A DNA stretch of 32,000 bases. It comes from an uncultured Muribaculaceae bacterium. Its GTDB lineage: Bacteria; Bacillota_I; Bacilli_A; RF39; UBA660. Of this stretch, positions 8,996-27,047 are shown one piece after another. Made by a program: the position numbers and the translations under genes. The DNA lies in the NCBI GenBank assembly GCA_964408085.1, contig CAYOYB010000003.1, forward strand, positions 99,314 to 131,313. Direction: 5' to 3'. Under the pieces are notes generated by a model. It saw nothing but the letters and a program-made list of their open reading frames with translations. It made no database searches and was not told where the DNA came from. Each line of letters starts with the position of its first letter. The stretch's first letter is position 1.

Positions 8996-9071
8996 ATCTA
9001 AATAGTAAGGTGATTACTATAAAAAATAATAGTAGAATTACAATAAATTGAGATATCTCTCTTTTTGTCAT
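8994..9071 (-). CDS. 25-aa hydrophobic peptide MTKREISQFIVILLLFFIVITLLFR (type I toxin-like)
   Basis: ATG at 9071 has a strong SD (AAGGTGGTGG) 6 nt upstream. The peptide has a charged N-terminus followed by a single TM-length hydrophobic run. This is an internal start within the 68-aa track ORF, whose own TTG start has no SD. Confidence 0.45.
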   Translation of the reverse strand: MTKREISQFIVILLLFFIVITLLFR

Positions 9072-9150
9072 AATTAACCACCACCTTTCTTTTATCTTTT
9101 GATAAATAGAAAGGGAAAGCATCTGATATATTTCAAATGTATCCACCAAT

Positions 9151-9179
9151 ATTATAGCAAACATTTGTTCTTGTTTCGA
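9151..9179 (-). promoter_or_regulatory. Promoter for the small-peptide mRNA
   Basis: The minus strand reads TCGAAA, 17 nt, TGcTATAAT (a perfect extended -10). This would give a 5' UTR of about 70 nt. Confidence 0.45.
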
Positions 9180-9312
9180 TTGCTTTTTAAAAGTTTTCAA
9201 ATAACATAAAAATTTTTATTTTAACTAATCTTTTATATTGAATAATTATTTTCTTAGACTAAATTAACCATATAAACTTAAAACTATGATATAATTTATT
9301 TAGGTGGTAAAC

Positions 9313-11113: not shown

Positions 11114-11121
11114 TTCAAGCT

Positions 11122-11153
11122 GACAAATTTGGTAATATAAAAGTCAATTTTTT
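11122..11153 (+). repeat. 33-bp repeat, copy 2
   Basis: GAcAAATTTGGTAATATAAAAGTCAaTTTTTT. It starts 70 nt upstream of the ATG at 11192, the same distance as copy 1. Confidence 0.7.
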
Positions 11154-11191
11154 ATTGTCTTTTTTTGTTATACTTTTTTAAGGTGATTTTT

Positions 11192-13036
11192 ATGCATTAT
11201 TGGTTGGAAATTTATCTTACTAAAAATGATACATCAAAGGAAGACTGGTTAGGATTAATTAAAACAATTTCTAATTATAATAGTAATTTTAGAAAGTGGA
11301 AGATTATTATCAAAATTGAAGATAATAAAATTAGATATTTTATTAAATCGCGATGTAACTTACCACCTACCATTAATAATTTAAGTTCCTTTTTATTCAA
11401 AAATATTGAAGAATTTAATATTCCAAGAGAATATTTATCATTACCTTTTTTATCAAAACCAGAAAGCAATGTTATTGATATTACGAATTATTGTAGTATT
11501 AAAAATAAAGGTAATTTAGAATATTTAGAAATAACCTTCCAAAAGTTATATGATGATAAAATTAAAACTAAAACAACTTTTTATTTAAATAAAAATGGAG
11601 ATATAAAAAAATATAGAACGTTTTTCACTTTACCAACTAATATTTTAGCAATTAATTTTTCACTTAATAAAAGATATTTTTTTAAAAGCGCACCTAAATA
11701 TTTAGATATAAATAAAATATTACATTTACTTGATAGTGAGCAAAAAGGAGCTATTTTAAAAGTAGATACCTTTCCATATTTACAGGGGAATTTTTATTTA
11801 AAACAAAATACATATAATTTTAATAAACATTCCATTATTATTGGTTCAAGTGGTAGTGGTAAATCAAAATTTCTTAGTTCACTTATAAAAAATATTAGTA
11901 GTAATTTTAAACAAAACTATAAAGTTGTGGTTATTGATCCCCATGCTGATTTAGAAAATGATATTGGTGGACTTGGAAAAACAATCGATTTTAAAAATAA
12001 TTTAGATAGTATTGATCCTTTTATTAAAGATAGTTCTAATATTGTCTCGACAACAGAATTATTATTAGAGCTTTTTAAATCGTTAATTTCTGATCAATAT
12101 AATTCAAAATTAGAAAGAGTTTTAAGACATTCTATTTATCTATTATTAGTAAATAATTCTTTTAATTTTAGTAATTTACGTAAATTAATTCTAGATTTAG
12201 AATATCGAAATTCATTGATCAAAAAACTAAAATTAAACTTACCTATAAGTGTTATTGACTTTTTTTTATCAGATTTTAGTAATTTAAAGACAGGTTCTTA
12301 TAATGAAGCTATATCCCCTATTATTGCTTTTATAGATGAAATGGAAATGATCCCTGTTTTTAATGGGCAAAGCGATTTACCAGATTTAAAACACACTATT
12401 AAAGAGAATTTTTTAACATTGTTTTCTCTTGATAGAACAAAATTAGGTGATAAGGTAACAAAGACTATTGCTGGTTTAATAATGCAACAATTACTTACTA
12501 TAATTCAAAGTCGTGAGATAAATGAACATATAATTTTTGTAATTGATGAAGTAGCAGTTATTGAAAACCCTATTCTTTCACGATTTTTATCTGAAGCTAG
12601 AAAATATAACTTATCATTAATATTAGCAGGGCAATTTTTTAGTCAAATATCTGATAGTTTAAAGAGTTCAATATTCGCTAATGTTATTAATTATTATATA
12701 TTTAGAGTTTCTAAATTAGATGCCAATTTGTTAGTCGATAGTTTTAACATGAAAATACCATTAGATGATACAAGAGATAGAAAAATAAAACTATTAACAG
12801 AATTAAGTACTAGAGAATGTATAGTTAGAGTTGATTGTAATGGGATATTACTACCTGCTTTTAAAGCTAGTACTTTAGATTATGAAAGTCTGCCTAGAAT
12901 AAAATGTGAAAATATAAATAACAGTATTGTTAATAGCAATACGAAAATAAAGAAATGTAATTTTAAAATAGATAATAATGTTAATCTAAAAGATATTTTA
13001 ATATTAAGTTCTTCTAGTAGAAAGGTTGTGAAATAG
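11192..13036 (+). CDS. HerA/FtsK-superfamily (DUF87-like) P-loop NTPase with an N-terminal domain of about 220 aa and unknown function
   Basis: Motifs present: Walker A IIIGSSGSGKSKF, the HerA-type VVVIDPHADL block, Walker B IIFVIDEVAV, and the family's conserved SEARKYNLSLILAGQFFSQI block. No TM segments. I prefer the ATG at 11192 (AAGGTGA 5 nt upstream) to the track TTG at 11165. Confidence 0.75.
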   Translation: MHYWLEIYLTKNDTSKEDWLGLIKTISNYNSNFRKWKIIIKIEDNKIRYFIKSRCNLPPTINNLSSFLFKNIEEFNIPREYLSLPFLSKPESNVIDITNYCSIKNKGNLEYLEITFQKLYDDKIKTKTTFYLNKNGDIKKYRTFFTLPTNILAINFSLNKRYFFKSAPKYLDINKILHLLDSEQKGAILKVDTFPYLQGNFYLKQNTYNFNKHSIIIGSSGSGKSKFLSSLIKNISSNFKQNYKVVVIDPHADLENDIGGLGKTIDFKNNLDSIDPFIKDSSNIVSTTELLLELFKSLISDQYNSKLERVLRHSIYLLLVNNSFNFSNLRKLILDLEYRNSLIKKLKLNLPISVIDFFLSDFSNLKTGSYNEAISPIIAFIDEMEMIPVFNGQSDLPDLKHTIKENFLTLFSLDRTKLGDKVTKTIAGLIMQQLLTIIQSREINEHIIFVIDEVAVIENPILSRFLSEARKYNLSLILAGQFFSQISDSLKSSIFANVINYYIFRVSKLDANLLVDSFNMKIPLDDTRDRKIKLLTELSTRECIVRVDCNGILLPAFKASTLDYESLPRIKCENINNSIVNSNTKIKKCNFKIDNNVNLKDILILSSSSRKVVK

Positions 13037-13735
13037 ATGAATGATAATATTGCTTTAGATATAGTTAATAAAATTTTTAACAATGTTTTTGAAACTGACA
13101 ATAAATTTTCTTTGAAAGATTTACTAGATAAATTTGCCTTTGATATTAAATTACCGAATAAGGTAAATGATTCTACAACTAATGAAATAACATGGGCTGA
13201 TTCAATAAATAGTGGTAAATTTATCACTAATCAAAATATGCAGAAAAGAGATGAATCTATAGGGTGGATGTTACCCAAAAAAGATATCAATAATCTGCAA
13301 GAAATTATTGATTTATGGAATAGTATTAATTTAACTACAACTGAAAGATTTTTTAACTCTGTCAATGTCGCAAAAAGTGATACAATTTATGGTTGTCAAA
13401 ATGTCTATAGATGTAGTAATTGTAGTAACTCTAAAAATATAATTTACTGTGATTCTTGTGGTAGTTCAGAATATCTTCTTGCTTCACAAAGATCAGTAAA
13501 TTGTAATTTTTGTATACGATGTGATGATTCTAAAGATTGTAGTAATAGTTATAGTGTTATTTATTCAAATAAAGTCAGTAATTCTTTATTTATTCAAGAT
13601 TGCTTTAATTTATATGAATGTATGTTTTGTTCACATATTGCTTCAAAAAAGTTTTGTATTGCCAATATGCAATTTGAAGAAGAAGAATATTATGAAATAA
13701 AAAAGCTAATTATCGATTGGATATTAGCCTCTTAA
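13037..13735 (+). CDS. Cys-repeat protein of unknown function (13 Cys in the C-terminal ~90 aa)
   Basis: The ATG directly follows the TAG of the NTPase gene (TAGATG). The N-terminal 118 aa have no Cys. After that the pattern C-x5-C-x2-C-x8-C occurs twice, flanking C-x2-C...C-x2-C-x2-C-x5-C. There is almost no His, so it is not HNH-like. Confidence 0.6.
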   Translation: MNDNIALDIVNKIFNNVFETDNKFSLKDLLDKFAFDIKLPNKVNDSTTNEITWADSINSGKFITNQNMQKRDESIGWMLPKKDINNLQEIIDLWNSINLTTTERFFNSVNVAKSDTIYGCQNVYRCSNCSNSKNIIYCDSCGSSEYLLASQRSVNCNFCIRCDDSKDCSNSYSVIYSNKVSNSLFIQDCFNLYECMFCSHIASKKFCIANMQFEEEEYYEIKKLIIDWILAS

Positions 13736-13748
13736 TATATATATTGAA

Positions 13749-15488
13749 TTATTTATTATCTTTATCATTTGTTATTTCTGTTTCATATAGGTTTCTATAC
13801 TTTTTACAGTTTTTTAACAAATACTCATGATTGCCCTCTGCTTCTATTTTACCATTTTCTAAATATAGTATTCTATCTGATTTTATTATGGTTGAAAGAC
13901 GATGCGCAATTATTAAAATAGTATATTCACCTTTCATATTATTAATAGCCTCTTGTATTTTCTCTTGAGTTTCATTATCTAAAGCACTTGTTGCTTCATC
14001 AAAAAGAATAATTTCTGTTTTTTGAACTAAAGCTCTAGCAATCGCTAGTCTTTGTTTTTGACCACCTGATAGATTTACGCCACCTTCACCAATTATTGTA
14101 TCATAACCATTAGGTAACTCATTAATAAAATCGTCTAGACAAGCTATCTTACAAGCCTTCTTCATTTCTCTATCCGTTAAATCGGCTTTAACTAATTTTA
14201 AATTCTCCTTAATACTCATATTAAAAATATAAGGATTCTGATTAATAATTGTAATATTCCCTCTAATACTATCTCTATCCAATTCATTTATATTAATATC
14301 ATCTATAGTAATAGTTCCACTAGAAACATCGTACATTTTGCAAAGTAAATTAAATATAGTTGTTTTCCCAGCACCACTTTTTCCAACAAAAGCTACTGTC
14401 TCATTAGCTTTAATTTTAAAACTCAATTTATCCAAAACTTTTTTATCTTCATATGAAAAACTAACATTTTTAAATTCAAAGTCACCATTTATTTTATCTA
14501 TATGCTTTAATCCAAAATGTTCCTTTTTAAATTTGTCATCATTTATAAGTTCTCTAATTCGTTCGCAAGATAAGTTAAAATCTTTTATATATTCCAGTAA
14601 GTCACCAGTTAAATAAGCAGAATTTGAGACAGTAATGGCATAGTTATATAATACTAAAGCTATCGTTGGTAAAATTATACTCTGTTGCATACATATTACT
14701 AATAGGATAATTAATAAAAATGAAAATACATCAGTTAATTGCCACATTCCTAATTTATAATTCCAACTAGTTTTACGCATCTTCATTCGTTTAATATGAT
14801 AATCTTCAATTCTTGTTTCTAATTCTCTTAAGAAATCTTCTTCACTATTTAACATTTTAATGTCTCTAGCGCCTCTTACTAATTCACCAATAAAGCCTGA
14901 TACTCTTTCGCTGTATTTTCTTACTACCTTATCATCTATATTTAATTTTTTTGTTCTTATATTTTCTAATATATATAAAATAATTACTGTAATTAAAATA
15001 TATATAAATACTAATTTATTTACTATAAAAATAGCGATTAATATTCCAACATATTTAATTAGTTGGGTCATTTTTCCAAAAATAGAGTTAAATACATCAG
15101 CTAATCGTGAAGTATCATTTGTTAGTCTTTGAATAAATAGTCCACTACCATTTTTATCTAAACATTCGGTTTCTAATTTTAAAACATTTCTACCTAAATC
15201 AATTTCTATAATCGACAAAGTATTTCTATATATAATATTTGTACATCGATGAGCGATATATCTAAATATATCATCAATACTGTTTGTAATAAATATTGCA
15301 AGCGCAATTAGGATAATTCTAGTATATTCATTACTAGTTAGAGAAACAATTATTTTAGCGCTTAATATTGGTGTAATTATACTAAAAGCAATACTAAATA
15401 TGTTAGCAATATTAAGCAATACTAAATACTTCTTTTGACCTTTAGCATAACTCCAAGCAAATTTCAAATTATTAAATAATTCTTTCAC
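13749..15488 (-). CDS. ABC exporter, fused permease + ATPase half-transporter (MsbA/LmrA-like type I exporter)
   Basis: The N-terminal half has six TM helices. The C-terminal NBD has Walker A GKSGAGKTT, signature LSGGQKQRLAIARAL, Walker B ILFDEATSALD and H-loop IAHRL. The start is uncertain: GTG at 15488 (GGAG 9 nt upstream) or the track TTG at 15503. Confidence 0.85.
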   Translation of the reverse strand: MKELFNNLKFAWSYAKGQKKYLVLLNIANIFSIAFSIITPILSAKIIVSLTSNEYTRIILIALAIFITNSIDDIFRYIAHRCTNIIYRNTLSIIEIDLGRNVLKLETECLDKNGSGLFIQRLTNDTSRLADVFNSIFGKMTQLIKYVGILIAIFIVNKLVFIYILITVIILYILENIRTKKLNIDDKVVRKYSERVSGFIGELVRGARDIKMLNSEEDFLRELETRIEDYHIKRMKMRKTSWNYKLGMWQLTDVFSFLLIILLVICMQQSIILPTIALVLYNYAITVSNSAYLTGDLLEYIKDFNLSCERIRELINDDKFKKEHFGLKHIDKINGDFEFKNVSFSYEDKKVLDKLSFKIKANETVAFVGKSGAGKTTIFNLLCKMYDVSSGTITIDDININELDRDSIRGNITIINQNPYIFNMSIKENLKLVKADLTDREMKKACKIACLDDFINELPNGYDTIIGEGGVNLSGGQKQRLAIARALVQKTEIILFDEATSALDNETQEKIQEAINNMKGEYTILIIAHRLSTIIKSDRILYLENGKIEAEGNHEYLLKNCKKYRNLYETEITNDKDNK

Positions 15489-15582
15489 TACAATCAGCTC
15501 CAATTTAATTATAAACTATATTTAAGCACTTTTATGGTTAGATTGCAACAAATTGACAGTTATTTACAAAAAAATTAATGCC

Positions 15583-16521
15583 CTAATCTTCTAAAAAATT
15601 CATTACTAAATCAATTAGTATTTCTTTTTCTTTAGGATTGGATTGCGCGATTAATAATGTAATTGCTACTAATGCATTATTATCTATAACTTGTTTGTTA
15701 TTTTTATATAGAATGCCATAATATTGTAAGAAATATATAAATAATGTTGCTGCAATTCTTTTATTACCATCGATGAAAACATGGTTTTTTATAATCAAAT
15801 ACAAAAAATTAGCTGCTTTTTCTTCTAAAGAAGGATAAACATCTTTACCATCAAATGATTGATAAATAGTACCTATTATACCTTTTAGTCCATTATTTCT
15901 TTCCAAAGCAAATAAATTACTTTCGCTATTAAATTTTAAATCATTAATTATTTTAAGACAATCTTCATATTCAATTACATTATTATTTATAGTTCCTTTT
16001 GGTTTAGAAATTTTTTTATGGTCATAATCATCAAGTAATCCTAATGCATTTGAGTAACCATTTATAACTCTTATTATTCCTTTTACATCACTATCATGTA
16101 ACTCTGAATCAATTCGACTAGCAATATCTATTAATTTGACTGTTTTTTCTAAATATTCTAATCTTTGTTCATTAATAGAATAACCTTTTATTAAATGTTC
16201 TTTAAGTATCTTATTAGCCCATTTTCTAAAAATAATTCCATTTTTAGATTTAACACGATATCCTACACTAATAATCATATCTAGATTATAATGTTGAACA
16301 TTATATATTTTTCCATCCTTTGCAGTTGTTGCAAAATTTGCAATAACTGTCTCAGTACTTAGTTCTTCTTCTAAAATATTTTTTATATGCCTTGATATAA
16401 CAGATTTATCTCTATCAAATAATTTTGACATTTGCTCTAGAGATAACCAAACAGTTTCATCTTTCATATTTACTTCTAATTTAATACTTTGATTTTCAAA
16501 TAATATTATTTCATTTTTCAT
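15583..16521 (-). CDS. RhuM-like N-terminal domain fused to a Doc-type Fic domain
   Basis: The N-terminus (IKLEVNMKDETVWLSLEQMSKLFDRDKSVISRHIKNI...NLDMIISVGYRVKS) resembles the RhuM virulence-protein family. The C-terminus carries HVFIDGNKRIAATL, which matches the Doc variant of the Fic motif, HxFx(D/N)(A/G)NKR. Confidence 0.7.
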   Translation of the reverse strand: MKNEIILFENQSIKLEVNMKDETVWLSLEQMSKLFDRDKSVISRHIKNILEEELSTETVIANFATTAKDGKIYNVQHYNLDMIISVGYRVKSKNGIIFRKWANKILKEHLIKGYSINEQRLEYLEKTVKLIDIASRIDSELHDSDVKGIIRVINGYSNALGLLDDYDHKKISKPKGTINNNVIEYEDCLKIINDLKFNSESNLFALERNNGLKGIIGTIYQSFDGKDVYPSLEEKAANFLYLIIKNHVFIDGNKRIAATLFIYFLQYYGILYKNNKQVIDNNALVAITLLIAQSNPKEKEILIDLVMNFLED

Positions 16522-16587
16522 ATTTTTTCCTCCTATTAATAATATATTAACACATCATTTAAACTAAATTATCTTTGTGTTAACTAA

Positions 16588-16616
16588 ATTATATAGAAAA
16601 TATGTTCGCTTGTCAA
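16588..16616 (-). promoter_or_regulatory. Consensus sigma-A promoter for the RhuM/Doc-Fic gene
   Basis: The minus strand reads TTGACA, exactly 17 nt, then TATAAT. The leader that follows contains the inverted repeat TTAACACA-N21-TGTGTTAA (16547-16583). Confidence 0.65.
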
Positions 16617-16646
16617 CACTAAAAAAAAGAAATTAGAATCATTATC

Positions 16647-17480
16647 CTACTTTCTTTTTTTACTATAATGCTTAACTTTCTCTTGGAGATTTTGATATTC
16701 TTTTTTATCATCAGATTCATCAAACCAATTTTTGCATATTGTCGATATTTGAGAATAGCCCCAATCTTCAGAATTAGTATATGAAAATATATCATCTATA
16801 TCTTCTTGTATAGCATCTAATAATTCTTTCATATCTTTAAGAACTTTTTGTTTTTTAAACTTTTTCCTTAATAATTTACCAAACAACGAAAAATTATCAT
16901 TAACAAAGCTAGATATATTATCACTATAAATTTCAATTTTAATATCTAAAGAAGGAATTAATTCATACTCTTCTTCTTTAAAATTTGGATTTTCTTCAAT
17001 AGGAATTGTTTTTTCGTTTAAAATAACTATCGTTTTGTCAGATACCATTTTTTTAATTTCTTCTTTTGAATATGTCTTACTATCATCAAAATTAACATCA
17101 TCAACAATTGCTGCAACATAACATATTTGATAAAGTTGTGTCCACCAACTCAAATCCCTGCCACGGCCCTCTGTTTTGTTATCAAAAAAAGTTATTGTGG
17201 TAGGAATTTCACAGATTTTAGAATATTTTTTGCCATTGTTTTCAGAGAACATTTCTAAATAGTCTTCTTCAGTAAGTGATATACTATAAAATTTGGTTAA
17301 TAAATCATAAAATTCTTTATCTGTTAGCTTTTTAAAATCTGTTTCAATTATTTTCTTTAAAATATCAATGTATTTTCTCATTTGTGTTTTAAATACTTCA
17401 ACATTTTCCTCATCACTATTACGATGTATATAGGCATATGTATCATGATACAATGAAACTCTACTTTTTCCAACGTACAT
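16647..17480 (-). CDS. Hypothetical protein (277 aa, acidic, K-rich tail)
   Basis: Long ORF with an AGGAGG SD and its own TGcTATAAT promoter. I recognise no motif. Confidence 0.55.
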   Translation of the reverse strand: MYVGKSRVSLYHDTYAYIHRNSDEENVEVFKTQMRKYIDILKKIIETDFKKLTDKEFYDLLTKFYSISLTEEDYLEMFSENNGKKYSKICEIPTTITFFDNKTEGRGRDLSWWTQLYQICYVAAIVDDVNFDDSKTYSKEEIKKMVSDKTIVILNEKTIPIEENPNFKEEEYELIPSLDIKIEIYSDNISSFVNDNFSLFGKLLRKKFKKQKVLKDMKELLDAIQEDIDDIFSYTNSEDWGYSQISTICKNWFDESDDKKEYQNLQEKVKHYSKKRK

Positions 17481-17749
17481 TTGAATACCTCCTTGTTTAG
17501 TTTTTTATTATAGCATATTTTCTTTAAATTGTATATAATTTTATAATAAAAATTAAATTGATAATTAATAATAACATAGTAATATACATTTTTTGCACAT
17601 TACTTTCTTTTTCTACAGTTACCTTTTAGCAAATGACACTAGCTAAATTTCCAAGAAAAAATTACTTTTTCTGTTGTTAAATGCTTCCAAAGGATTAATA
17701 ATATTTTGTACTTGATAATGCATTATTTGCTGAATATAAAGTAATAAAT

Positions 17750-18451
17750 TTATAAATATTTTCTTATTTTTAAATATCTATAAAGTACAGGACAAATATC
17801 CTCTATATTAAGTTTTGTATTATGAATAGCATAATTTAATATATCACTCATATTATAGGAATTATTTATAGTACATTTTTTTATTTTTGATATTGCAATT
17901 CCATGATTTGAAAAAGTGTGCAAATTCCATCTATCCATTTTTATAGAATCTAAATCAGAATATTTTAAAGAATATCCTGCTTTTATTAGATAATCCTTAT
18001 CATATCCTTTTGCTTTAATCTCATCAATATCATTAAAACTAAAGTCTACATCTTCTTTAATATCTGTGTTTAATAATATATAACTTTTTAAAAACCAATC
18101 AAAATATTTATATGCAACAATCCTATGTAATTTATTGATTTCAGTCCATTTAAAATAAACATTAATAATAAATTTTGAAAATCTATTTTTTCCTCTTATC
18201 TTAGTTCCTAAGTTAAATGCTCCTGGAATATGAGGATACTTTTCACAAACATTTATCCAACAGTCAAATAATATTAATAAATTATCTAACCCTTCAACAA
18301 AAAACACTTTTTTGGAATCCTCCAGTGATTGAGCATGAAATGATATTTTAGGTAATAACCCATTTTTAATAATGGATTCAATATTATTTTTTTTAGTAAA
18401 ATGAAAATAATTGGAATTTATATCATTTAGGTTCAATTTATAATCTCCCAT
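17750..18451 (-). CDS. Hypothetical protein (233 aa)
   Basis: Long ORF with its own TGaTATAAT promoter. The N-terminal YFHFTKKNNIESIIKNGLLP only vaguely recalls the opening strand-helix of ADP-ribosyltransferase-fold proteins, so I leave it unassigned. Confidence 0.55.
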   Translation of the reverse strand: MGDYKLNLNDINSNYFHFTKKNNIESIIKNGLLPKISFHAQSLEDSKKVFFVEGLDNLLILFDCWINVCEKYPHIPGAFNLGTKIRGKNRFSKFIINVYFKWTEINKLHRIVAYKYFDWFLKSYILLNTDIKEDVDFSFNDIDEIKAKGYDKDYLIKAGYSLKYSDLDSIKMDRWNLHTFSNHGIAISKIKKCTINNSYNMSDILNYAIHNTKLNIEDICPVLYRYLKIRKYL

Positions 18452-18507
18452 ACAACACCTCGAAAAACCTAATAAAATTATATCAAAATTTCATATATTT
18501 TTATAGT

Positions 18508-18788
18508 AAAAATAAATTAGAATGAACTAATTTATTTTCTTAATAATTAATCTTAATGAGTTTAAAACTAATAATAGTGTAACTTCTACATCAGCAATAA
18601 CTATATACCAAATTTTTGAATATCCTAATGTACCCAATAGAAGAAATAAAAATTTAATTGTAAGAGCAAAAACAATATTAAAGCGAACAATTTTGTTAGT
18701 TTTTTTAGATATCTTTATAGCATCACTTATTTTATCTAAATTATCAGTCATTAAAACAACGCTTGAAGCTTCAATTGCTGCATCACTA
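18508..18788. repeat. 281-bp direct repeat, copy 1 (orphan copy of the P-type ATPase 3' end plus terminator)
   Basis: It aligns base for base with 23214-23494, with about ten mismatches by eye and no indels. Confidence 0.9.
18527..18788 (-). pseudogene. 5'-truncated remnant of a heavy-metal P-type ATPase gene (last ~87 codons)
   Basis: It translates to ...SDAAIEASSVVLMTDNLDKISDAIKISKKTNKIVRFNIVFALTIKF...LRLIIKKIN, nearly identical to the C-terminus of the 610-aa ATPase at 23233-25065. Homology stops abruptly at 18788. Confidence 0.85.
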
Positions 18789-18976
18789 ATTTATAATTCC
18801 AAACAATTTTTGGAAGATAAAAAGTACCTTTTATGTTATGGGAATATTCCCAAAAATTACCTTTAGCACAATACTAGCTGGCTTGCACAGCTTGATAATT
18901 TGCTACTAACATATTTAAAAGTTAGTTGAAAATACATAACGATTAGTTACTAAGTTTCTTTTAATTAGTCAAAATT

Positions 18977-20203
18977 CTAAAAAATATTCAAAAAAGATTT
19001 TGCTTTATTAATATATGGTTTTCGTTCTAAAATTAATTCTTTCGAATCTATAGGAACATGTATATCTTTTTCATTAATAAATATATAATTAATATCTTTT
19101 CTTGATGAATTTCCAAATAATTCAATTGGTAAATAATAATTCATTATAATCCATAATACATCTGAACAATTTTTTGGAAAAAAACCTTCACCATCTGTTA
19201 TAACAATCTTGTTGTCAGCATCCTTTGAAAAACTTTCGGCCATAGCTGTAAAATCAGTAAATCCTCTACCTTTTATATGCAAATTATCAATATCGCTATC
19301 ATTTCTTATCTCATTCCAACCATAAAATTCGATATCACAAAATCCCACCTTTATTTGACTAGCAGATAATATATTTTTGCATTCTCTCAAAATTGCTTTT
19401 ATTTTTTGCATACTCATAGAACCACTACTATCGATAATTATTTCGCTTTCAGCATATGATATATCTTGTTTTTCTTCTTTTTTTATTATTCCATCAATTT
19501 CTACTTCATAAAATGCAGTGGTTACTTCATCTGGAGTAACTATATTTGCTCTTAATAATTCTTTCCAATAAATAAGAGGAGCTGCTCTTTCAACACTAAC
19601 ACTAGGAAATTCGATCCCTAATGACATGTTTCCAAATTGAGCCTGTTTTTTTAGTTCTTCTTGAAAATCCCCTAACAATTCATTTCTTAAATGGCTATTT
19701 TCACCCATTAAATCTTGTAAATCTTGATTATATACTTCATTTACCCACTCTTCTAAATCAGATATTTCCATGTGATAAGTATTTGCATTCATCCATTCTT
19801 TAATTTGCTTTAATTGAGGTAAATATTTCATATATAATTCTTCTGTAGAATAATCTAGTGCATCTGGAATATCTACAAGGCCTTCTGGCATTGTTAGTCC
19901 ATCCTTTACTAATAACTGATTAATAATAGCATCTTCAACATAGTTCAATAAATCTCTATCTCTTCCAACATTTCTAAATAAATGACTTAATACTATGTGA
20001 AATATTTCGTGAGCAACAATAAATTCTTTTTCATCATCAAAATAATCATCAATAAATTCTTGCTTATAAAAAATACATCTTCCATTAGTAAATGCTGAAG
20101 CAGGAACTGACTCATTCGTAAATTTAAATTGCAAATTAACAATAACATTACCAAACAAAGGATATCTTATTAAAAGATTTCTAATAATATTATTTATTTC
20201 CAT
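18977..20203 (-). CDS. HExxH metallopeptidase-like domain fused to a vWA domain (DUF2201_N/DUF2201-type architecture)
   Basis: The N-terminal domain has AHEIFHIVLSH (HExxH). The C-terminal vWA domain has an intact MIDAS, IIIDSSGSMS ... VITDGEG. The start overlaps the AAA+ gene's stop by 14 nt. Confidence 0.75.
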   Translation of the reverse strand: MEINNIIRNLLIRYPLFGNVIVNLQFKFTNESVPASAFTNGRCIFYKQEFIDDYFDDEKEFIVAHEIFHIVLSHLFRNVGRDRDLLNYVEDAIINQLLVKDGLTMPEGLVDIPDALDYSTEELYMKYLPQLKQIKEWMNANTYHMEISDLEEWVNEVYNQDLQDLMGENSHLRNELLGDFQEELKKQAQFGNMSLGIEFPSVSVERAAPLIYWKELLRANIVTPDEVTTAFYEVEIDGIIKKEEKQDISYAESEIIIDSSGSMSMQKIKAILRECKNILSASQIKVGFCDIEFYGWNEIRNDSDIDNLHIKGRGFTDFTAMAESFSKDADNKIVITDGEGFFPKNCSDVLWIIMNYYLPIELFGNSSRKDINYIFINEKDIHVPIDSKELILERKPYINKAKSFLNIF

Positions 20204-22046
20204 TTGATTCTAGCCTTTTAATAAATGGTTTATTAGATTGACTATATAATTTCATAATCCTTTGTTCATTATCTTTAGACCATTCATAATCAAAAACTGC
20301 TAAAAATTCTTTACCTAATCCACTAACAAACTCTCTTACTTTATCCACATTATCATCATCGACTGTACTTAAACACATTGTTGTATACCATCTTAAAGAA
20401 GGGTCAAATGGTACATCTTCTATGTTATATCTATTATTTAAGACATCATCAATAGTTATTAAATTCATTTTGCTGAATTTTATAAAATCTCGAGTAAGAC
20501 TTTCCCCAATAAATGCACGAAGTACATTGGGGTTATTACTTTGATATAATGCCTTTGAAGCTAAAGCCCATTTTCTTGGATCAGCATTAGGATTTACTCC
20601 ATCATATTGTGTTCTTAACACATTATCACCATTAACTCTTATATAATCTACAATTGCAGGATGTATTCCATCAATTTTTTGTTGACCTTTATAAAGTAAT
20701 TGCTTGCCATCTTTTTCTCTTTTTAATGCCCATTTTAGCCACTCTTCAGAATCAGTATTTATATAAACATGAGCAAATCTTCCAAACAATGGTTCACTTA
20801 ATGAATTTGCTGATCTTGATTCACTTGCTTCATTCCCTGCAGCGCATACAACAGCATTTTCTGGTAATTTCAATCTATATCCGCTGTTTGTTAGTGTTTT
20901 ATTTAATGTTACTTCAAAAGCAACTTTTTGTATGTCATTCTTTGCATTAGTTAATTCTTCTAAAAATAAGATATGCAATTTATCTGGTTCATCTGCACAT
21001 TTCTTACATAAACTTTTATACCAATAAGGTTCATATAAAAATAGTTCTTTTGAATTAAAATCTTTAGCTATAATACCTGTAAAGCCATCTGAACTTGTAC
21101 AACCAAAATCAATTAATTCTAAATTTCTATCTAGTGTAAGCATTCTTTCTGTTTTCCCAACACCAGTTTTACCATGTAAAAATACCGCAATGTTGCTATT
21201 TATACATATCTCAATTATTTCTTCTTCTGTAAGTGGAGTAAAATTAAACCCATAACGATTATTATCTTCTTTTTCTTCATCGCTAAATAATAATGCTGGT
21301 GCAGTATGTTCTAATTCATCATTGATGCTTTTTAAGAATTCATTATTTAAATATCTATTTAAATCACTATCTTTAAATTCTCTACCTGCTATATCAAAGT
21401 TTGCACCAAATAATACAATTGAGGAATATACTAATTTTGCTTTTTCATCTATAGTTAATGGAATACTTTCAACTTTTAAATAAACATCAGTATCTGCTTT
21501 ACTTATTGTTCCATCGCTCAAAACTTTTGATTCAACTTTATTTTTCTTTCTTATAAATCTTATACCAAATGCTTCATATTCGCAATATTCTTTTTCATCT
21601 ACAAAATGTGTTCTTCCTGTTGTAATAATTAGTTTACTTTTATTATCAAATAATTTGTCTATTATTTCTCCAACTCTTCCACCTATAATAGTTAGTGGGT
21701 ATTCAATATTTAAATTTTGTAATTCATTTAAATCAAAGTCTTCAATATCATCAAATGAAAAAGCTATTCTAACCCCATGTTTAAAATTAGTTTTAGTAGT
21801 TTGAGATAATACTCCACTATTATTAATATAAATCATATTATTAGTAGTAGCTTTATTCTTTTTATTAATAATATATTTTCCATCAAGCCAATATCCTCCA
21901 AAACCATTTGATTGATCATATGAAACCCCCGTTAAACGAGCCAAATCAGAGCAATAACATTCAACTCCTGATTGTTTTATAGTCTCTAGCATATTTTCAT
22001 CTTTAATATGTTCTTCTTTTAAAATTCCTATCCTCTTAATTTTCAT
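20190..22046 (-). CDS. MoxR/AAA_5-like AAA+ ATPase with an unassigned N-terminal extension of about 290 aa
   Basis: Motifs present: Walker A FLHGKTGVGKTERM, Walker B HILFLEELT, sensor-1-like VVCAAGNE, and LSEPLFGRFAHVYI (Arg-finger region). The first ~290 aa have no motif I can assign. A GAAGGGGGA SD lies upstream. Confidence 0.75.
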   Translation of the reverse strand: MKIKRIGILKEEHIKDENMLETIKQSGVECYCSDLARLTGVSYDQSNGFGGYWLDGKYIINKKNKATTNNMIYINNSGVLSQTTKTNFKHGVRIAFSFDDIEDFDLNELQNLNIEYPLTIIGGRVGEIIDKLFDNKSKLIITTGRTHFVDEKEYCEYEAFGIRFIRKKNKVESKVLSDGTISKADTDVYLKVESIPLTIDEKAKLVYSSIVLFGANFDIAGREFKDSDLNRYLNNEFLKSINDELEHTAPALLFSDEEKEDNNRYGFNFTPLTEEEIIEICINSNIAVFLHGKTGVGKTERMLTLDRNLELIDFGCTSSDGFTGIIAKDFNSKELFLYEPYWYKSLCKKCADEPDKLHILFLEELTNAKNDIQKVAFEVTLNKTLTNSGYRLKLPENAVVCAAGNEASESRSANSLSEPLFGRFAHVYINTDSEEWLKWALKREKDGKQLLYKGQQKIDGIHPAIVDYIRVNGDNVLRTQYDGVNPNADPRKWALASKALYQSNNPNVLRAFIGESLTRDFIKFSKMNLITIDDVLNNRYNIEDVPFDPSLRWYTTMCLSTVDDDNVDKVREFVSGLGKEFLAVFDYEWSKDNEQRIMKLYSQSNKPFIKRLESNGNK

Positions 22047-22075
22047 TTGGAATCCCCCTTCAAAATGTAAGTATT

Positions 22076-22104
22076 ATAATAGCATAAATGGTTTATCTTT
22101 ACAA
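22076..22104 (-). promoter_or_regulatory. Promoter of the AAA+/vWA operon
   Basis: The minus strand reads TTGTAA, 17 nt, TGcTATTAT (extended -10), about 30 nt upstream of the ATG. Confidence 0.55.
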
Positions 22105-22619
22105 TTATTTTCAATTAATTTATAAAAAATTTTCCAAGAGATTTTTAACACATAAGATTATAAAATTATTTTATAGTCATCTTTAACTTTGTATTTATAA
22201 TTCATTTTAATTGTTTTTAAATAACTGGGTACTACTGCATATCCTCCTTAGTAATACCTTTAGAAATGTCATATATATCTTTTACCTCAAAATCTTTATT
22301 ATCAAAATAGTCTTTTATTTCAACTTGTTGTGATTTCTTTTATCTTATCATTGTAAATTGTTATAGTTCTCTGAAAAGTGCTTAATTGCTTCTAAAATAG
22401 ATTTTAAATAGTATTTAGGGTTATTATTTTCTTTTGTTAAAGTTTTATTTTTAGTATACATGAAAATTCTTGAATTTATTTTACTATTAAATTACTACTT
22501 CATACACGATTTTTGTTAACAAAAAAATCTTATATATTTTTATAAACGATAAAAATGTATACTTGTTTTAATATGATATGATATGATATAATATCTATGT
22601 AAATGGAGGTTTATATACT

Positions 22620-23075
22620 ATGATTAAAACTGTTAAATATCCTAATTTTGATGAATACGACTTTATTAGATTATATTGTGCAATGAATTTTAAAAATGAA
22701 CTTTCACCAATTATAAAACATCATGAATTAGAAAAACGATTATACGCATTATACTCTTTACCTGAATTTAGAGAACTATTCCAAGGCATAATTCCTAAAA
22801 GGGATTATATAAACCCAGATAATAGTTATTTGGATTTAGGAACTGCATTAAATACAGCACAATTATTTGGATTATTAACACCAATAGATAGAGTTGGAGA
22901 GATTAGATCAATTGTTTCATGTGATAATGATATAGCACAAGAAATAATATCAAATTCTGATGCAGAAATGGTTAATAAAATGACTAACTTGTTTAATACA
23001 ATGTTTAACCTAGATCATAATTCAAAAGATGAAAGATTTATTGATCCTCAAGCGAAGATCTATAGTAAGCATTAA
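22620..23075 (+). CDS. Hypothetical protein (151 aa)
   Basis: It has a GGAGG SD and a TTGTTT-17-TGaTATAAT promoter whose spacer holds (TGATA)x3. It is divergent from the AAA+ operon and lies inside the same duplicated-flank segment. I recognise no motif. Confidence 0.55.
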   Translation: MIKTVKYPNFDEYDFIRLYCAMNFKNELSPIIKHHELEKRLYALYSLPEFRELFQGIIPKRDYINPDNSYLDLGTALNTAQLFGLLTPIDRVGEIRSIVSCDNDIAQEIISNSDAEMVNKMTNLFNTMFNLDHNSKDERFIDPQAKIYSKH

Positions 23076-23142
23076 AATCTCCCATTAGGCAAGAAGTACA
23101 GAGTCCAAAACTAGTAAAAAGAAATTAATATAAAAATAATTA

Positions 23143-23167
23143 AAATAGCAAAAATATGCTATTTTTT
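23143..23167 (+). terminator. Rho-independent terminator of the 151-aa gene
   Basis: Stem AAATAGCA / TGCTATTT followed by a T-run. Confidence 0.6.
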
Positions 23168-23213
23168 CTATTTCATTATGAAAAGAAAATCATTAAAATA
23201 ATTTTTCAAACAA

Positions 23214-23494
23214 AAAAATAAATTAGAATGAACTAATTTATTTTCTTAATAATTAATCTTAATGAGTTTAAAACTAATAATAGTGTAACTCCTACATCAG
23301 CAATAACTGCATACCAAATTTTTGAATATCCTAATGTACCCAATAGAAGAAATACAAATTTAATTGTAAGAGCAAAAATAATATTAAAGCGAACAATTTT
23401 GTTAGTTTTTTTAGATATCTTTATAGCTTCACTTATTTTATCTAAATTATCAGTCATTAAAACTATACTTGAAGCTTCAATTGCTGCGTCACTA
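23214..23494. repeat. 281-bp direct repeat, copy 2 (3' end and terminator of the intact ATPase gene)
   Basis: It matches 18508-18788. It includes the terminator hairpin AAATAAATTAG/CTAATTTATTT, which spans the TAG stop. Confidence 0.9.
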
Positions 23495-25065
23495 CCAACT
23501 CCACCCATAGAAATACCTAAATCAGATATTTTCATAACTGGTGCATCATTAATTCCATCGCCAACAAAGGCAGTAAAATTATCTGTTTTTAAACTAGTAA
23601 CCTTATTTACTTTATCAATAGGGAGCATATTGTAATAGTATTCATTAATACCTAATTTTTGACTTACTTTAGTTACAATATCTTTATTATCACCTGACAA
23701 CATAATAATCTTATTAATACCTTCTTTTTTTAATGTTTTAACAAGATTATATGCTTCTTCTTTTATTTCATCAGCAATAACAATATAACCTAAATAGGTT
23801 TTATTTCTAGCAAGATAAACAATTGTTCCAAGCTCATCTGATTTTGTTAGACTAATATCATTATCAGTTAAAAGTGAATAATTACCTATCAATAAATCAT
23901 CGTTATCTATTTTAACAGATATTCCTTTTCCACTTATTTCTTGAAAATCACTTATTCTGTTCTTTAAAATTTCTTTATCATATTTTTTAATAATCGATGT
24001 AGCAATTGGATGATTAGAATAATATTCACCAAAAGCCGCTAATTCTAGTAGTTCATCTTCACTAATATTAAGACTAACTATTTTTTGAACTGAAAAATTC
24101 CCTTTTGTAATAGTACCTGTTTTATCAAAAACAATATTTTTAATTTTAGATAAATTTTCTAATTCAGTTCCACCTTTAATCAAGATACCCTCTTTACTAG
24201 CACGACCAATTCCAGAAAAGAATCCTAGAGGAACAGAAATAATAAGTGCACATGGACATGATGTAACTAGAAAAACAAGTGATCTATATAACCAATCATT
24301 CAAATTTTGTCCTAACAAAACTGGCACTAATGTTAGAAGAAAAGCGCAAATAACTACAATTGGAGTATAAATTCTACAAAATCTTGTAATAAATTTTTCT
24401 GTTTTTGTTTTTTTATCCTCAGAGTTTTCAATTAACTCTATTATTTTAGTAGCTGTACTAGTTTCAAAAGTTGATGTTGCTTTAATTGTTAATACTGTAT
24501 CTATATTAGTTGTTCCACTTAAGACATTCATATCTTTTTTAACATGTCTTGGTATGGATTCTCCAGTTAAACTAGATGTATCAATACTTCCTTCACCATC
24601 AATAACAATTCCATCCAAACCAATTTTTTCACCAGGTTTAACAATAAAAATATCGCCTAATTTAATTTCCTTAATATCTATATTTTTGATTTTCTCGTTA
24701 ATTTTTATATTGATAGTATCACTTCTTAAATCCATTAGTTTAGTAATAGATTCTTCAGAATTATCAACAGCTTTATCAGATAGATATTCCCCTAAATTAA
24801 AAAGTAACATAACCATTAGAGCTTCTTCATATTCACCAATAAAGAATGCTCCTATTGTTGCTATAATCATAAGAAAGTTTTCATCAAAGATTTCTCCTTT
24901 TAAGATATTTTTGATTCCTTCAATATACATTTCATAAGATACAATGATATAACTAATAACTAACAATGTTAAATGTAGTATCTCATTATCTTTAAACATA
25001 AATGAAACAATAAAAATAATCGCACTTATAATAATCTTAAAAAATTCAAAATTAAATTTTTTCAT
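23233..25065 (-). CDS. Heavy-metal-translocating P1B-type ATPase (CPC type, Cd/Zn/Co-like), lacking an N-terminal HMA domain
   Basis: 610 aa. Motifs present: TM6 SCPCALIISVP, phosphorylation site DKTGTIT, SNHPIA (HP motif), and GDGINDAP hinge. The protein starts directly with TM helices. Confidence 0.9.
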   Translation of the reverse strand: MKKFNFEFFKIIISAIIFIVSFMFKDNEILHLTLLVISYIIVSYEMYIEGIKNILKGEIFDENFLMIIATIGAFFIGEYEEALMVMLLFNLGEYLSDKAVDNSEESITKLMDLRSDTINIKINEKIKNIDIKEIKLGDIFIVKPGEKIGLDGIVIDGEGSIDTSSLTGESIPRHVKKDMNVLSGTTNIDTVLTIKATSTFETSTATKIIELIENSEDKKTKTEKFITRFCRIYTPIVVICAFLLTLVPVLLGQNLNDWLYRSLVFLVTSCPCALIISVPLGFFSGIGRASKEGILIKGGTELENLSKIKNIVFDKTGTITKGNFSVQKIVSLNISEDELLELAAFGEYYSNHPIATSIIKKYDKEILKNRISDFQEISGKGISVKIDNDDLLIGNYSLLTDNDISLTKSDELGTIVYLARNKTYLGYIVIADEIKEEAYNLVKTLKKEGINKIIMLSGDNKDIVTKVSQKLGINEYYYNMLPIDKVNKVTSLKTDNFTAFVGDGINDAPVMKISDLGISMGGVGSDAAIEASSIVLMTDNLDKISEAIKISKKTNKIVRFNIIFALTIKFVFLLLGTLGYSKIWYAVIADVGVTLLLVLNSLRLIIKKIN

Positions 25066-25363
25066 TTCTAACCTCCTCCATAATATGTTCTAAACCATAC
25101 TCTAAAATTATTTTAATATGATCATCAGCAATGGAATATTTAACAATTTTGCCTATCTTATTAGTTTTTACTAAATTAGAAGTTCGAAGATTTTTTAATT
25201 GATGCGAAATAGCCGATTGACTTATATTTAAAATATCAGCAATTTCATTAACACATTTTTCACCATTTAATAAAACGTCTAAAATTCTTAATCTAGTAGC
25301 ATCTCCAAAAATTTTAAAAAATTCACTTAAACCAGTTAATAAATCTTTACTATGTGTTTTCAT
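25052..25363 (-). CDS. ArsR/SmtB-family metalloregulator (alpha5-site type)
   Basis: 103 aa with a winged HTH (ATRLRILDVL...CVNEIADILNISQSAISHQLKNL). The C-terminal DDHIKIILEYGLEHIME fits DxH-x10-H-xx-E, which resembles the alpha5 metal site of CzrA/SmtB. It overlaps the ATPase start by 14 nt. Confidence 0.8.
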   Translation of the reverse strand: MKTHSKDLLTGLSEFFKIFGDATRLRILDVLLNGEKCVNEIADILNISQSAISHQLKNLRTSNLVKTNKIGKIVKYSIADDHIKIILEYGLEHIMEEVRNEKI

Positions 25364-25379
25364 ATTACCCTCCTATATA

Positions 25380-25401
25380 TGATTATATGTTCATATATTC
25401 A
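25380..25401. promoter_or_regulatory. Putative ArsR/SmtB operator overlapping the operon's -10 box
   Basis: Near-palindromic 22-mer TGATTATATGT|TCATATATTCA, with 9 of 11 positions symmetric. On the minus strand it includes TATAAT, 17-38 nt upstream of the arsR-like ATG. Confidence 0.45.
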
Positions 25402-25694
25402 TATTATATTAAAAATTTAAAAATTAGTCAATACTAATATTAAAATGATAAACTTTACATTTATAATTATTATCTTTCAATTATATTACTCATTTATATT
25501 ATATTTATTTAATACGAACGATTGACATTTTTAACAATGAATGACTACATTCAAATAAAAAAAGAAGAAAAATTAATTTACAAATTATTAACTCCAAAAT
25601 TATGTTTATATAGAATATAATATTTTTTTTAGAATTAAATATAATTTACTAACTACTTAAATATAATAACAATTAAAATATGTGGGGTTTTATA

Positions 25695-26765
25695 ATGAAA
25701 AATAAAAAAGTATATATAATTTTATCTATTTTTATAATTTTACTTATTATTAGTATATTTATATATGTTAAACATAATAAGAAAAAAAGAAAAATTACTA
25801 ATGAATATCCAATTATAAGTCTTAAAGGTAATAATATTATGGATATAAATGTTTCTGAAAATTTTGAAGAACCTGGATATTCTGCTTATGATGAAATTGA
25901 TGGTGATATAACTGATAAGGTAATGATTAAAAATAATGTTGATTTCAACACACCTGGTACCTATGAAATTTTATATAAAGTAACAAATTCTAAAGGTAAT
26001 AGTGTGGAAATAAAAAGATTTATAACAATTAACCAAGCAATTAATATTGAATATAAAGAAATCTATGATAGTATTGATAATACTGTTCATGGTTGGGGAA
26101 CTAATAATAAACAAGATGGGCAAAGACCTAATACAGATTTGTCAAATGAGGAATTAAAAAAATATAATGCTTATGCAATGGGAAATGATGAAAAAGTTAT
26201 ATATCTTACCTTTGATGAAGGTAATCTAGAATCTTATTTACCAGAAATTGTTGATATCTTAAATAAAAATGATATTAAAGCAACTTTCTTTTTGTGTCGA
26301 GGCTTTATAAAGAATAATCCAGAACTCATGATAGAAATGATAGAAAAGGGACACTCAGTTGGTAACCATACTGCTAACCATATTTCTATGCCTACACTAG
26401 CTAATTCTGAAAATTTTGAAAAATATTTAAAAGAATTATCATTAACTGAAGAAGCATTTAAAGAAATTACTGGTAAATCTATGGACCGAATTTATCGCGA
26501 ACCTAGAGGAGAATATAGTTTACGCAGTTTAAGTATTATAAAAGATTTAGGATATAGTACCTATTTTTGGAGTGCAGCCTATAAGGATTGGGATGATAAA
26601 CTAACTAAGGAACAAGCACTTCAAGAAATGATTAATCATGTACATAATGGTGCAATATACCTACTTCACCCAAATAGTAAAGGAAATTATTTAGCATTAG
26701 ATGATTTTATTAAACAAATGAAGGAACAAGGCTATACTTTTGATTTGGTTAGAAATATTAAATAA
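25695..26765 (+). CDS. PdaA-like polysaccharide (MurNAc) deacetylase with N-terminal TM anchor and Ig-like (DUF5011-type) domain
   Basis: The NodB domain blocks KVIYLTFDEG, GHSVGNHTANH, IYREPRGEY, FWSAAYKDW, GAIYLLHP and QGYTF closely parallel B. subtilis PdaA as I remember it. PGYSAYDEIDGDITDKV is typical of DUF5011. I prefer the ATG at 25695 to the one at 25680. Confidence 0.75.
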   Translation: MKNKKVYIILSIFIILLIISIFIYVKHNKKKRKITNEYPIISLKGNNIMDINVSENFEEPGYSAYDEIDGDITDKVMIKNNVDFNTPGTYEILYKVTNSKGNSVEIKRFITINQAINIEYKEIYDSIDNTVHGWGTNNKQDGQRPNTDLSNEELKKYNAYAMGNDEKVIYLTFDEGNLESYLPEIVDILNKNDIKATFFLCRGFIKNNPELMIEMIEKGHSVGNHTANHISMPTLANSENFEKYLKELSLTEEAFKEITGKSMDRIYREPRGEYSLRSLSIIKDLGYSTYFWSAAYKDWDDKLTKEQALQEMINHVHNGAIYLLHPNSKGNYLALDDFIKQMKEQGYTFDLVRNIK

Positions 26766-26895
26766 AATTTAAAGTTAATAATATTATTTATTATTTTTTA
26801 AATACTAATAACCATTTTTTACATTATCCATAAAATATGTTATGAGGGGGAAAAAATATGTATGATTTTGCAGTTGTTGTAGATGCTGGTCATGG
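26743..26895. repeat. Junction duplication, copy 1 (deacetylase last codons + intergenic region + first 13 amidase codons)
   Basis: It aligns with 28127-28285, with a few substitutions and small indels in the AT-rich middle. Both copies include ATTTGGTTA[G/A]AAATATTAAATAAAATTTAAAGTTAATAATA and GAGGGGGAAAAAATATGTATGATTTTGCAGTTGTTGTAGATGCTGGTCATGG. Confidence 0.85.
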
Positions 26896-26920
26896 GAGAT
26901 ACAGAAAAATCCAAAAATAA
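26858..26920 (+). pseudogene. Orphan 5' fragment of the amidase gene (13 native codons, then out-of-context sequence; 20-aa ORF)
   Basis: It reads MYDFAVVVDAGHG, then RYRKIQK and a stop. It is preceded by the same GAGGGGG SD as the intact gene at 28248. Confidence 0.8.
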
Positions 26921-27047
26921 AAGAATAGCTATAAAGATAAATAAATACAAGGAAATAAGGTGCTTTGGTGGAAAAGTATCTTTTTTGATGATATAATATA
27001 AATTAGGAAGATTTATTATCTTCTGTAAAAAAGAAAGGACAGCTGTT

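Follow-up and report, generated by a model that had tools for sequence, protein, structure and literature searches.

Introduction

When a fragment that holds the 3′ end of a gene enters a chromosome by a single crossover (Campbell insertion-duplication), the product is an intact gene, the insert, and a 5′-truncated copy of the gene. Exactly this order is observed in the stretch of DNA described here, 32,000 nucleotides (nt) of contig CAYOYB010000003.1 (GenBank assembly GCA_964408085.1, positions 99,314 to 131,313) from an uncultured gut lineage, hereafter the window, in which the end of a heavy-metal P-type ATPase gene and its terminator flank a 4.4-kb segment on both sides. Unlike a Campbell insert, the segment holds no replicon or plasmid functions detectable with Pfam, searched on all open reading frames (ORFs) of at least 60 residues (aa) across the 32 kb, or with PHROGs and NCBIfam. 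What the locus preserves is an old scar of recombination within a variable gene island rather than a mobile element that is still active; as such it is a new instance of an ordinary, known type of scar. The repeat may be the mark of an insertion that was anchored by homology and independent of any recombinase, an origin whose chances appear about even.

Displaced gene ends are known from the rhs, contact-dependent inhibition (CDI), and type VI secretion system (T6SS) effector genes, where orphaned 3′ regions occur in strings behind a conserved gene and have been attributed to homology-facilitated illegitimate recombination (HFIR) (Jackson et al. 2009, cited in Kirchberger et al. 2017, PMC5361080). 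In these arrays, as that paper describes them, an intact gene is followed by orphan 3′ fragments in the same orientation, new DNA is placed beside the conserved gene while older ends are displaced downstream, and no recombinase takes part; the ATPase locus is alike in these respects. The body of the conserved gene is proposed there to serve as the homology anchor. The orphans of those arrays are divergent toxin tips that are kept with immunity genes and are under selection. At the present locus, by contrast, a decaying end without evident function has been displaced, and it shares 96% identity with the working one. The gene here is a metal-efflux ATPase, and the cargo consists of a pair of genes for an AAA+ protein and a von Willebrand factor A (vWA) protein together with an unrelated small gene.

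A second relevant class comprises cis-mobilizable elements (CIMEs) and the tandem accretion of integrative and mobilizable or integrative and conjugative elements (IMEs and ICEs) at the 3′ ends of genes (Pavlovic 2004; Bellanger 2011; reviewed in PMC5704250). That review describes tandem-stacked units without an integrase, which the ATPase locus resembles. It is unlike them in its unequal repeats (281 and ~55 nt), in the lack of an integrase or relaxase relic, in that relatives do not reuse the site, and in that the end of a different gene flanks a related module in another species.

The Repeated ATPase End

The features on which the description rests are as follows.

23214–23494, minus strand: right copy of the repeat, the ATPase 3′ end (codons 524–610, TAG, terminator hairpin) of the intact gene, from alignment and folding
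18508–18788, minus strand: left copy, a 5′-truncated orphan of the ATPase 3′ end with its terminator; contains a 74-aa ORF (18527–18751) and the derived changes A586I and G592E, from alignment and comparison with orthologues
18789–23213, no strand: the 4.4-kb insertion that separates the copies, pieced together from unrelated parts
23233–25065, minus strand: intact heavy-metal (Cd/Zn-type) P1B ATPase gene, 610 aa (TIGR01525, 1.5e-167; TIGR01512, 1.2e-150; Pfam E1-E2_ATPase and Hydrolase)
25052–25363, minus strand: ArsR-family regulator, the first gene of the ATPase operon (Pfam)

In pairwise alignment the two copies are identical at 271 of 281 positions (96.4%), with 10 mismatches and no indels, just as the preliminary description had estimated by eye. 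They form the biggest direct repeat within 15000–27000, and its edges are sharp: when 100 nt of flank is included on each side, the similarity ends abruptly at both. On the minus strand, its first base is the third of codon 524 (the gene has 610 codons), and it extends past the TAG stop through 19 nt of the 3′ untranslated region. The stop codon sits within an AT-rich hairpin that is followed by a run of T and folds with –10 to –12 kcal/mol (z of –4 to –5.7). Much as had been proposed, it comprises the gene's final 86 codons (~87 in the preliminary description) together with the stop and the hairpin of the terminator. The right copy is part of the intact gene, and the left copy, whose 5′ part is missing and whose 74-aa ORF begins at an internal Met, is the truncated orphan that it had been taken for. 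In annotation the ORF is better treated as a pseudogene fragment than as a gene.

The window probably comes from a metagenome-assembled genome, and short-read contigs break at this repeat, so that two strain variants might have been stitched together through a shared ATPase 3′ end. Such an origin is highly improbable. Logan unitig L009, from another run (SRR9335148), matches the window from 23243 to 18728 with 100% identity over 4516 nt and includes both cargo junctions; the junction at 18789/18788, where unique sequence meets an internal ATPase site, thus lies within an exact k-mer unitig. Unitig L001 (SRR9130108) matches the window from 18757 to 10081 with 3 differences. Both unitigs end exactly one k-mer away from a mismatch between the copies, as is expected where a de Bruijn graph meets a 281-nt repeat. 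The orphan, moreover, has alleles of its own. The repeat structure is not an artefact of the source assembly, since unitigs from other runs hold the same junctions. Two to three samples in all were found for this species, and the arrangement is the same in each.

The first 250 nt of L001 (window 18757–18508) agree with the right copy at the three mismatch sites closest to the terminator and with the left copy at the following three. This mixture could stem from gene conversion, but bubble-popping in a k=31 assembly would account for it equally well, given where the two unitigs end, and nothing is concluded from it.

Insertions at the ATPase Terminator

Comparison with relatives draws on the closest species (L002), a second species (L003 and L011–L017), and more distant relatives (L004, L005, and L007). 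The nearest GTDB representatives of the lineage are metagenome-assembled genomes labelled Tenericutes or Bacilli. The comparison involves three further features of the window.

15583–16616, minus strand: RhuM/Fic gene, PADLOC candidate system PDC-S23 (Pfam, PADLOC), with a consensus promoter TTGACA-17-TATAAT at 16588–16616
16621–16675, minus strand: third partial copy of the ATPase end, ~55 nt, made up of the last ~25 nt of coding sequence and the terminator hairpin, from alignment to relatives and folding
16647–18451, minus strand: second inserted unit, consisting of a 233-aa gene (17750–18451) and a 277-aa gene (16647–17480), both absent at this place in relatives

Among database proteins, the ATPase most similar to that of the window has 83% identity. 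In L002, where the ATPase is also 83% identical, the RhuM gene begins 136 bp past the ATPase stop; in the second species the ATPase is 80% identical and RhuM likewise comes next. The ATPase/ArsR region has 80–84% nt identity between species. RhuM is thus the native neighbour of the ATPase terminator in relatives, and in L002, L003, and L011 the terminator directly abuts the RhuM promoter. Positions 16640–23213 of the window are absent from L002, L003, L011, and L016. Because the 4.4-kb segment is missing from relatives, where the terminator meets the RhuM promoter, it is an insertion, in agreement with the view taken in the preliminary description. The empty state that had been predicted, with the terminator abutting the promoter of the 233-aa gene, was not found: the ancestral neighbour is the RhuM promoter, and the 233/277-aa pair is itself inserted.

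At the DNA level the window aligns to relatives in three pieces. The first runs from 25400 to ~23200, from the operon through the terminator; the second, 18787–18508, is the orphan; the third runs from 16675/16658 onward. This third piece starts 11–20 nt ahead of the stop of the relatives' ATPase and covers the terminator, the RhuM promoter, and RhuM. Its beginning is a third copy of the ATPase end, which lies directly after the stop of the 277-aa gene (the stop falls within its stem) and is attached to the RhuM promoter as in relatives. It folds into a hairpin, whose distal arm agrees at 15 of 16 positions with the right and left copies. An intact gene is therefore followed by orphan 3′ fragments in the same orientation (right copy, left copy, and third partial copy, of 281, 281, and ~55 nt), and two units have been added at the ATPase end, one at 16640–18507 between the left and third copies and one at 18789–23213 between the right and left copies.

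Other, unrelated genes follow the ATPase in L004, L005, and L007. Neither a second ATPase 3′ fragment nor an integrase was found downstream of the ATPase in six related loci (L002, L004, L005, L007, L011, and L016), so that a search for alternative cargos between the same repeats, which the preliminary description had suggested, met no orphan ATPase fragment in these loci. These comparisons mark the region past the ATPase as a variable island, in which the ATPase end is not an attachment site that is used repeatedly.

The ~45 nt after the right copy were considered as a degraded remnant of the native ATPase–RhuM spacer, but local alignments to the spacers of four relatives were no better than those of shuffled sequences (p 0.05–0.57), and the idea was dropped. 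In another strain of the L003-like species (L016:11960–13200 and L017:7877–9023), RhuM is fragmented into a 68-aa ORF and frameshifted pieces and the ORF6N gene is cut down to 130 aa; island genes are decaying there.

Age and Polarity of the Copies

The divergence of the copies was compared over 77 comparable codons. They differ from one another at 10 sites and from any orthologue at 29–41 sites; the copies are thus sister sequences, without evidence of a foreign allele. Spread over 8 codons, the 10 differences comprise 7 nonsynonymous and 3 synonymous changes, where orthologues show 7–9 nonsynonymous and 22–34 synonymous differences in the same codons. At the expected nonsynonymous fraction of ~0.24, the binomial probability of at least 7 in 10 is ~0.003. 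When the differences are polarised by orthologues, the orphan has the damaging changes A586I and G592E (conserved ADVGVT), and the working copy has synonymous or conservative changes. The nonsynonymous excess and the damaging changes on the orphan indicate that the divergence is largely decay after the event.

The event is old, with neutral drift of the orphan ever since and continued selection on the working copy. The arrangement has persisted despite the 281-nt substrate for deletion that it contains. In the preliminary description an incoming, slightly different ATPase fragment had been put forward as one possible origin. Most of the divergence is better explained by decay after the event between sister copies, and the homology-driven, Campbell-like origin that was proposed along with it fits. 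Comparison with the ATPases of relatives, which had also been proposed, shows that the copies are each other's closest relatives and does not decide which of them was incoming.

A Mosaic Cargo

Read along the direction of the ATPase, the order is ArsR, ATPase with the right copy, a 151-aa gene, a 573-nt gap, the AAA+ gene, the 408-aa vWA gene, a 188-nt tail, and the left copy. The contents of the inserted segment are listed here.

22620–23075, plus strand: 151-aa gene, convergent with the ATPase gene; its own protein family
22047–22619, no strand: 573-nt non-coding stretch with no ORF of at least 60 aa and no Rfam match
20190–22046, minus strand: 618-aa AAA+ ATPase, MoxR/dynein-type AAA_5 at residues 288–424; N-terminal ~270 aa without an assigned fold
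18977–20203, minus strand: 408-aa protein with an HExxH metallopeptidase-like domain (DUF2201_N) and a vWA-like domain (DUF2201) (Pfam)
19019–22121, minus strand: extent of the nucleotide homology of the AAA+/vWA module to other genomes (80–87.5%), the flanks differing per genome

The AAA+ gene overlaps the 408-aa gene by 14 nt. AAA_5 scores 23.6 bits (cut-off 22), and the two domains of the partner have E-values of 3.7e-17 (DUF2201_N) and 2.7e-08 (DUF2201). The adjoining AAA_5-type ATPase and vWA-domain partner form a MoxR-type two-gene module, and the pairing is kept in L018–L023. The pair is common in gut Bacilli, with more than 1000 homologues down to ~35% identity. In three genomes (L018, L022, and L023) the DNA homology is limited to 22121 to 19019–19062, which corresponds to the two genes and ~75 nt of promoter, and the neighbours are different in each.

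The remaining pieces have other affinities. The non-coding stretch, earlier noted as ~570 nt, shows as its sole similarity to the fetched loci the ~75 nt of the AAA+ promoter (22047–22121), and there is no Rfam match anywhere in the window. The 151-aa family has a 214-aa member in L024 that lies near tRNA genes, behind genes for a Mob_Pre relaxase and a large serine recombinase, and a member in L028/L029 that adjoins a tmRNA/tRNA integration hotspot; between the window and L024 the homology covers the gene itself only. Part of the cargo may thus descend from an integrative element, of which none is left in the window. Sequence searches found the cargo as one unit nowhere else, and only the AAA+/vWA pair recurs, always with other flanks. 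The cargo is therefore not coherent, and the idea of a mobile cassette is not borne out.

NCBIfam, PHROGs, and PADLOC assign no function to the 151-, 233-, and 277-aa proteins, and PADLOC gives no significant match of a cargo protein to a catalogued anti-phage system (a weak DolB match of the AAA+ protein, E=1e-3, and nothing for the others). No close copies of the ATPase tail or of the AAA+ gene were found in the viral contigs searched, phage records contain only distant AAA-domain relatives, and the 151-aa protein is not encoded by any PLSDB plasmid. A 30-mer of the terminator had no match in a scan of a metagenome collection.

Three observations concern the cargo genes and their relatives. 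In L022:1591–13058, paralogous sets of AAA+ and vWA-metallopeptidase genes stand in tandem: 628-aa and 622-aa proteins, with a DNA match to the AAA+ gene of the window, are followed by 133-aa and 528-aa DUF2201 proteins and, after three intervening genes, by a 618-aa/403-aa pair. Contigs P0122–P0128 (3.3–3.6 kb, e.g., L023), from many short-read assemblies, hold the AAA+/vWA pair alone and are barely longer than both genes, which suggests that the flanks of the pair are repeated or strain-variable in those samples too. Within the non-coding stretch a 37-aa ORF (22348–22461, minus strand) is followed by out-of-frame sequence and may be the remnant of a lost gene; it has no homologue among the fetched loci.

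Mechanism of Insertion

Mobility functions were sought in the searches described above, and no integrase, transposase, relaxase, or replication protein is detectable in the 32 kb with Pfam, PHROGs, or NCBIfam. Neither the cargo nor the AAA+/vWA module nor the 233/277 unit was found to have terminal inverted or direct repeats. A tblastx comparison with the fetched loci, including the relaxase/recombinase region of L024, revealed no remnant of either function in 22047–22619 or in the 188-nt tail. The absence of an integrase and a transposase, remarked on in the preliminary description together with that of terminal inverted repeats, thus holds for the whole window, and nothing shows the segment to be mobile at present.

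The inner edge of the left copy gives some indication of how the joint was formed. Two features are relevant.

18789–18811, minus strand: 23-nt stretch resembling an internal site of an ABC-transporter gene (codons WNYKL), abutting the inner edge of the left copy
13749–15503, minus strand: ABC-transporter gene (Pfam), representing the source family of the junction fragment

The fragment includes an identical 17-mer, 33 of 39 positions match the L011 allele of the ABC gene, and the likeness continues patchily into the ATPase sequence (TAG..ATG..GCAATT). Shuffled sequences never score as high (p<0.005), yet ~3% of random 43-mers from the window match elsewhere equally well. No decayed ABC sequence was found in the rest of the 188-nt tail (p 0.2–0.3). 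The arrangement is suggestive of an illegitimate, microhomology-mediated joint.

The same fragment might instead record a tandem duplication in situ. The region would have been duplicated when, on sister chromosomes, the ATPase site that lies 262 nt short of the stop recombined illegitimately with the internal ABC site, and most of the first unit would later have been replaced by the cargo. The junction, ABC-like and then ATPase, has the order expected for a unit with the ATPase 3′ end as one limit and, ~4 kb downstream, the ABC gene as the other, and the copies are indeed sister sequences. Such a history, however, calls for a further event in which ~4 kb was exchanged, with both breakpoints falling exactly at the unit's limits, so that no more than 23 nt of ABC sequence stayed behind. 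Furthermore, of the 23 positions of the fragment, 4 differ from the resident ABC gene and just 2 from the L011 allele. In-situ duplication is accordingly a distinctly unlikely explanation.

An identical geometry is seen at another gene. L011 has, in this order, ATPase, RhuM, a gene with an ORF6N domain, a 276-aa gene, and ABC. The 276-aa gene (8911–9741), located downstream of RhuM, is a homologue of the 277-aa gene of the window (63% aa and 79% nt identity). Around the ORF6N/276-aa module, the last 55–65 nt of RhuM, including the stop, are duplicated with 87% identity (7720–7774 and 9875–9929), and the orphan RhuM end is joined to the native ABC promoter. Since related modules are bracketed by the ATPase end in the window and by the RhuM end in L011, the duplicated sequence is that of whichever gene lies upstream, which argues against a fixed attachment (att) site. 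Duplications of ~55, 55–65, and 281 nt at different genes are hard to reconcile with a fixed-site recombinase and are predicted by homology-dependent insertion. The identities of the 277-aa gene (16647–17480) and its L011 homologue, higher in DNA than in protein, point to relaxed or diversifying selection on this gene.

These observations bear on the alternative of decayed site-specific elements, CIMEs stacked by tandem accretion, in which an element with the ATPase 3′ end in its attP would have inserted by means of a tyrosine or serine recombinase that was later lost, followed by a second element at the same site. It is the main rival and a serious one, though the less likely origin. The window has two units bounded by three copies of the ATPase end, the pattern that the review describes for the accretion of IMEs and CIMEs (PMC5704250), and the 151-aa family member of L024 adjoins Mob_Pre and a large serine recombinase. 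A further argument comes from a genuine integrase element, against which the locus was compared as a case of true site-specific insertion. An island of ~5.6 kb, encoding a tyrosine integrase, a helix-turn-helix (HTH) protein of excisionase type, and an Mrr-type nuclease, lies at tRNA-Thr in L028:1983–7643 and is absent at L029:7613, in a conspecific genome. It is flanked by a repeat of 110–140 nt with 92–94% identity that includes tRNA-Thr, so that repeats with such properties can arise in this way.

The ATPase locus is like this island in that the direct repeat takes in the target gene's end. It is unlike it in that the island has an integrase and an excisionase-like HTH protein beside its att site as well as a known empty site, and the ATPase locus has neither. 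That the window shows neither a recombinase nor any discernible relic of one lowers the probability of a CIME only in part, because a CIME may lack one by definition. The repeats are unequal (281 versus ~55 nt) and, at 281 nt, long for an att site; serine recombinases are not known to make long repeats. None of the six related loci uses the ATPase end again as a site, a related 276/277-aa module is flanked by a RhuM 3′ duplication in L011, and the cargo unit is found nowhere else. The evidence leans away from the site-specific alternative, which had already been raised in the preliminary description. It is weakened by repeats that are long and of unequal length, by the missing relic of a recombinase, by a site that relatives do not use again, and by the relative of the 233/277 unit that RhuM ends flank; the mechanism leans toward recombinase-independent displacement of the 3′ end.

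In such a displacement, DNA carrying the ATPase 3′ end and then foreign genes would recombine homologously with the resident ATPase gene on one side. The other side would be joined illegitimately, through short microhomology, to the internal ATPase site 262 nt ahead of the stop. The working gene would retain a complete 3′ end and terminator in the right copy, and a promoterless orphan, the left copy, would end up beyond the insert; either copy could be the incoming one. A homology anchor is available, given that the ATPase/ArsR region is conserved between species and that the copies differ by only 3.6%. The incoming DNA may have been linear, as in HFIR, or first circularised, as in Campbell-type insertion-duplication, since the product fits both. 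The variable island would have been built by at least two such events in this genome (16640–18507 and 18789–23213).

Several considerations weigh against displacement of this kind. A site-specific element that brings its target gene's end along would produce this geometry just as well, and three tandem copies of one gene end are a textbook sign of site-specific accretion (PMC5704250). The company of the 151-aa family in L024, a relaxase and a serine recombinase, means that part of the cargo may come from an integrative element. The ABC-like fragment is just 23 nt long, with chance matches at the rate given above. No same-species genome with a different state of the locus was found, and hence no donor, empty site, or polymorphism was seen. 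Finally, the route presupposes a host able to take up DNA, by competence or by conjugative chromosomal transfer.

If displacement is nevertheless the correct explanation, the locus provides a clean and datable case of a variable, probably defence-related island growing beside a conserved gene without a dedicated recombinase, in an uncultured gut lineage without genetics. Orphan gene ends would then record the order of acquisition. The 281-nt repeat is also a built-in substrate for deletion of the AAA+/vWA cargo by homologous recombination, and the locus could be polymorphic in populations.

A more speculative extension, which we regard as improbable, is that modules in this clade of gut Bacilli travel with the 3′ end and terminator of the preceding gene and insert by homology, as "homology-hitchhiking" cassettes. 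If so, the flanking repeats of 55–281 nt would permit RecA-driven pop-out as circles and re-insertion, and the cassettes would be self-propagating. Their footprints would be three to four scars in two species: the ATPase end twice, the RhuM end in L011, and perhaps a RhuM-like fragment at 25599–25712.

Neighbouring Genes

Beyond the left copy the order is the 233-aa gene, the 277-aa gene, RhuM/Fic, the ABC transporter, and a conserved block on the opposite strand that encodes a 232-aa protein, a HerA/DUF87-like ATPase, a transglutaminase-like protein, and an AraC regulator. The first three of these proteins (10184–13735; the HerA/DUF87-like ATPase has 623 aa) are 78–89% identical in amino acid sequence to their counterparts in L001, L002, L011, and L016. 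The block resembles an uncharacterised conflict system of the HerA type, with weak NCBIfam matches to anti-phage HerA.

On the other side, the spacer between the ArsR operon and a polysaccharide deacetylase gene contains ~115 nt (25599–25712) that resemble the region of RhuM encoding its C-terminus (15698–15811). The likeness consists of two collinear matches (local alignment p ~0.007 versus shuffled sequences), and the stretch may be a further orphan gene fragment.

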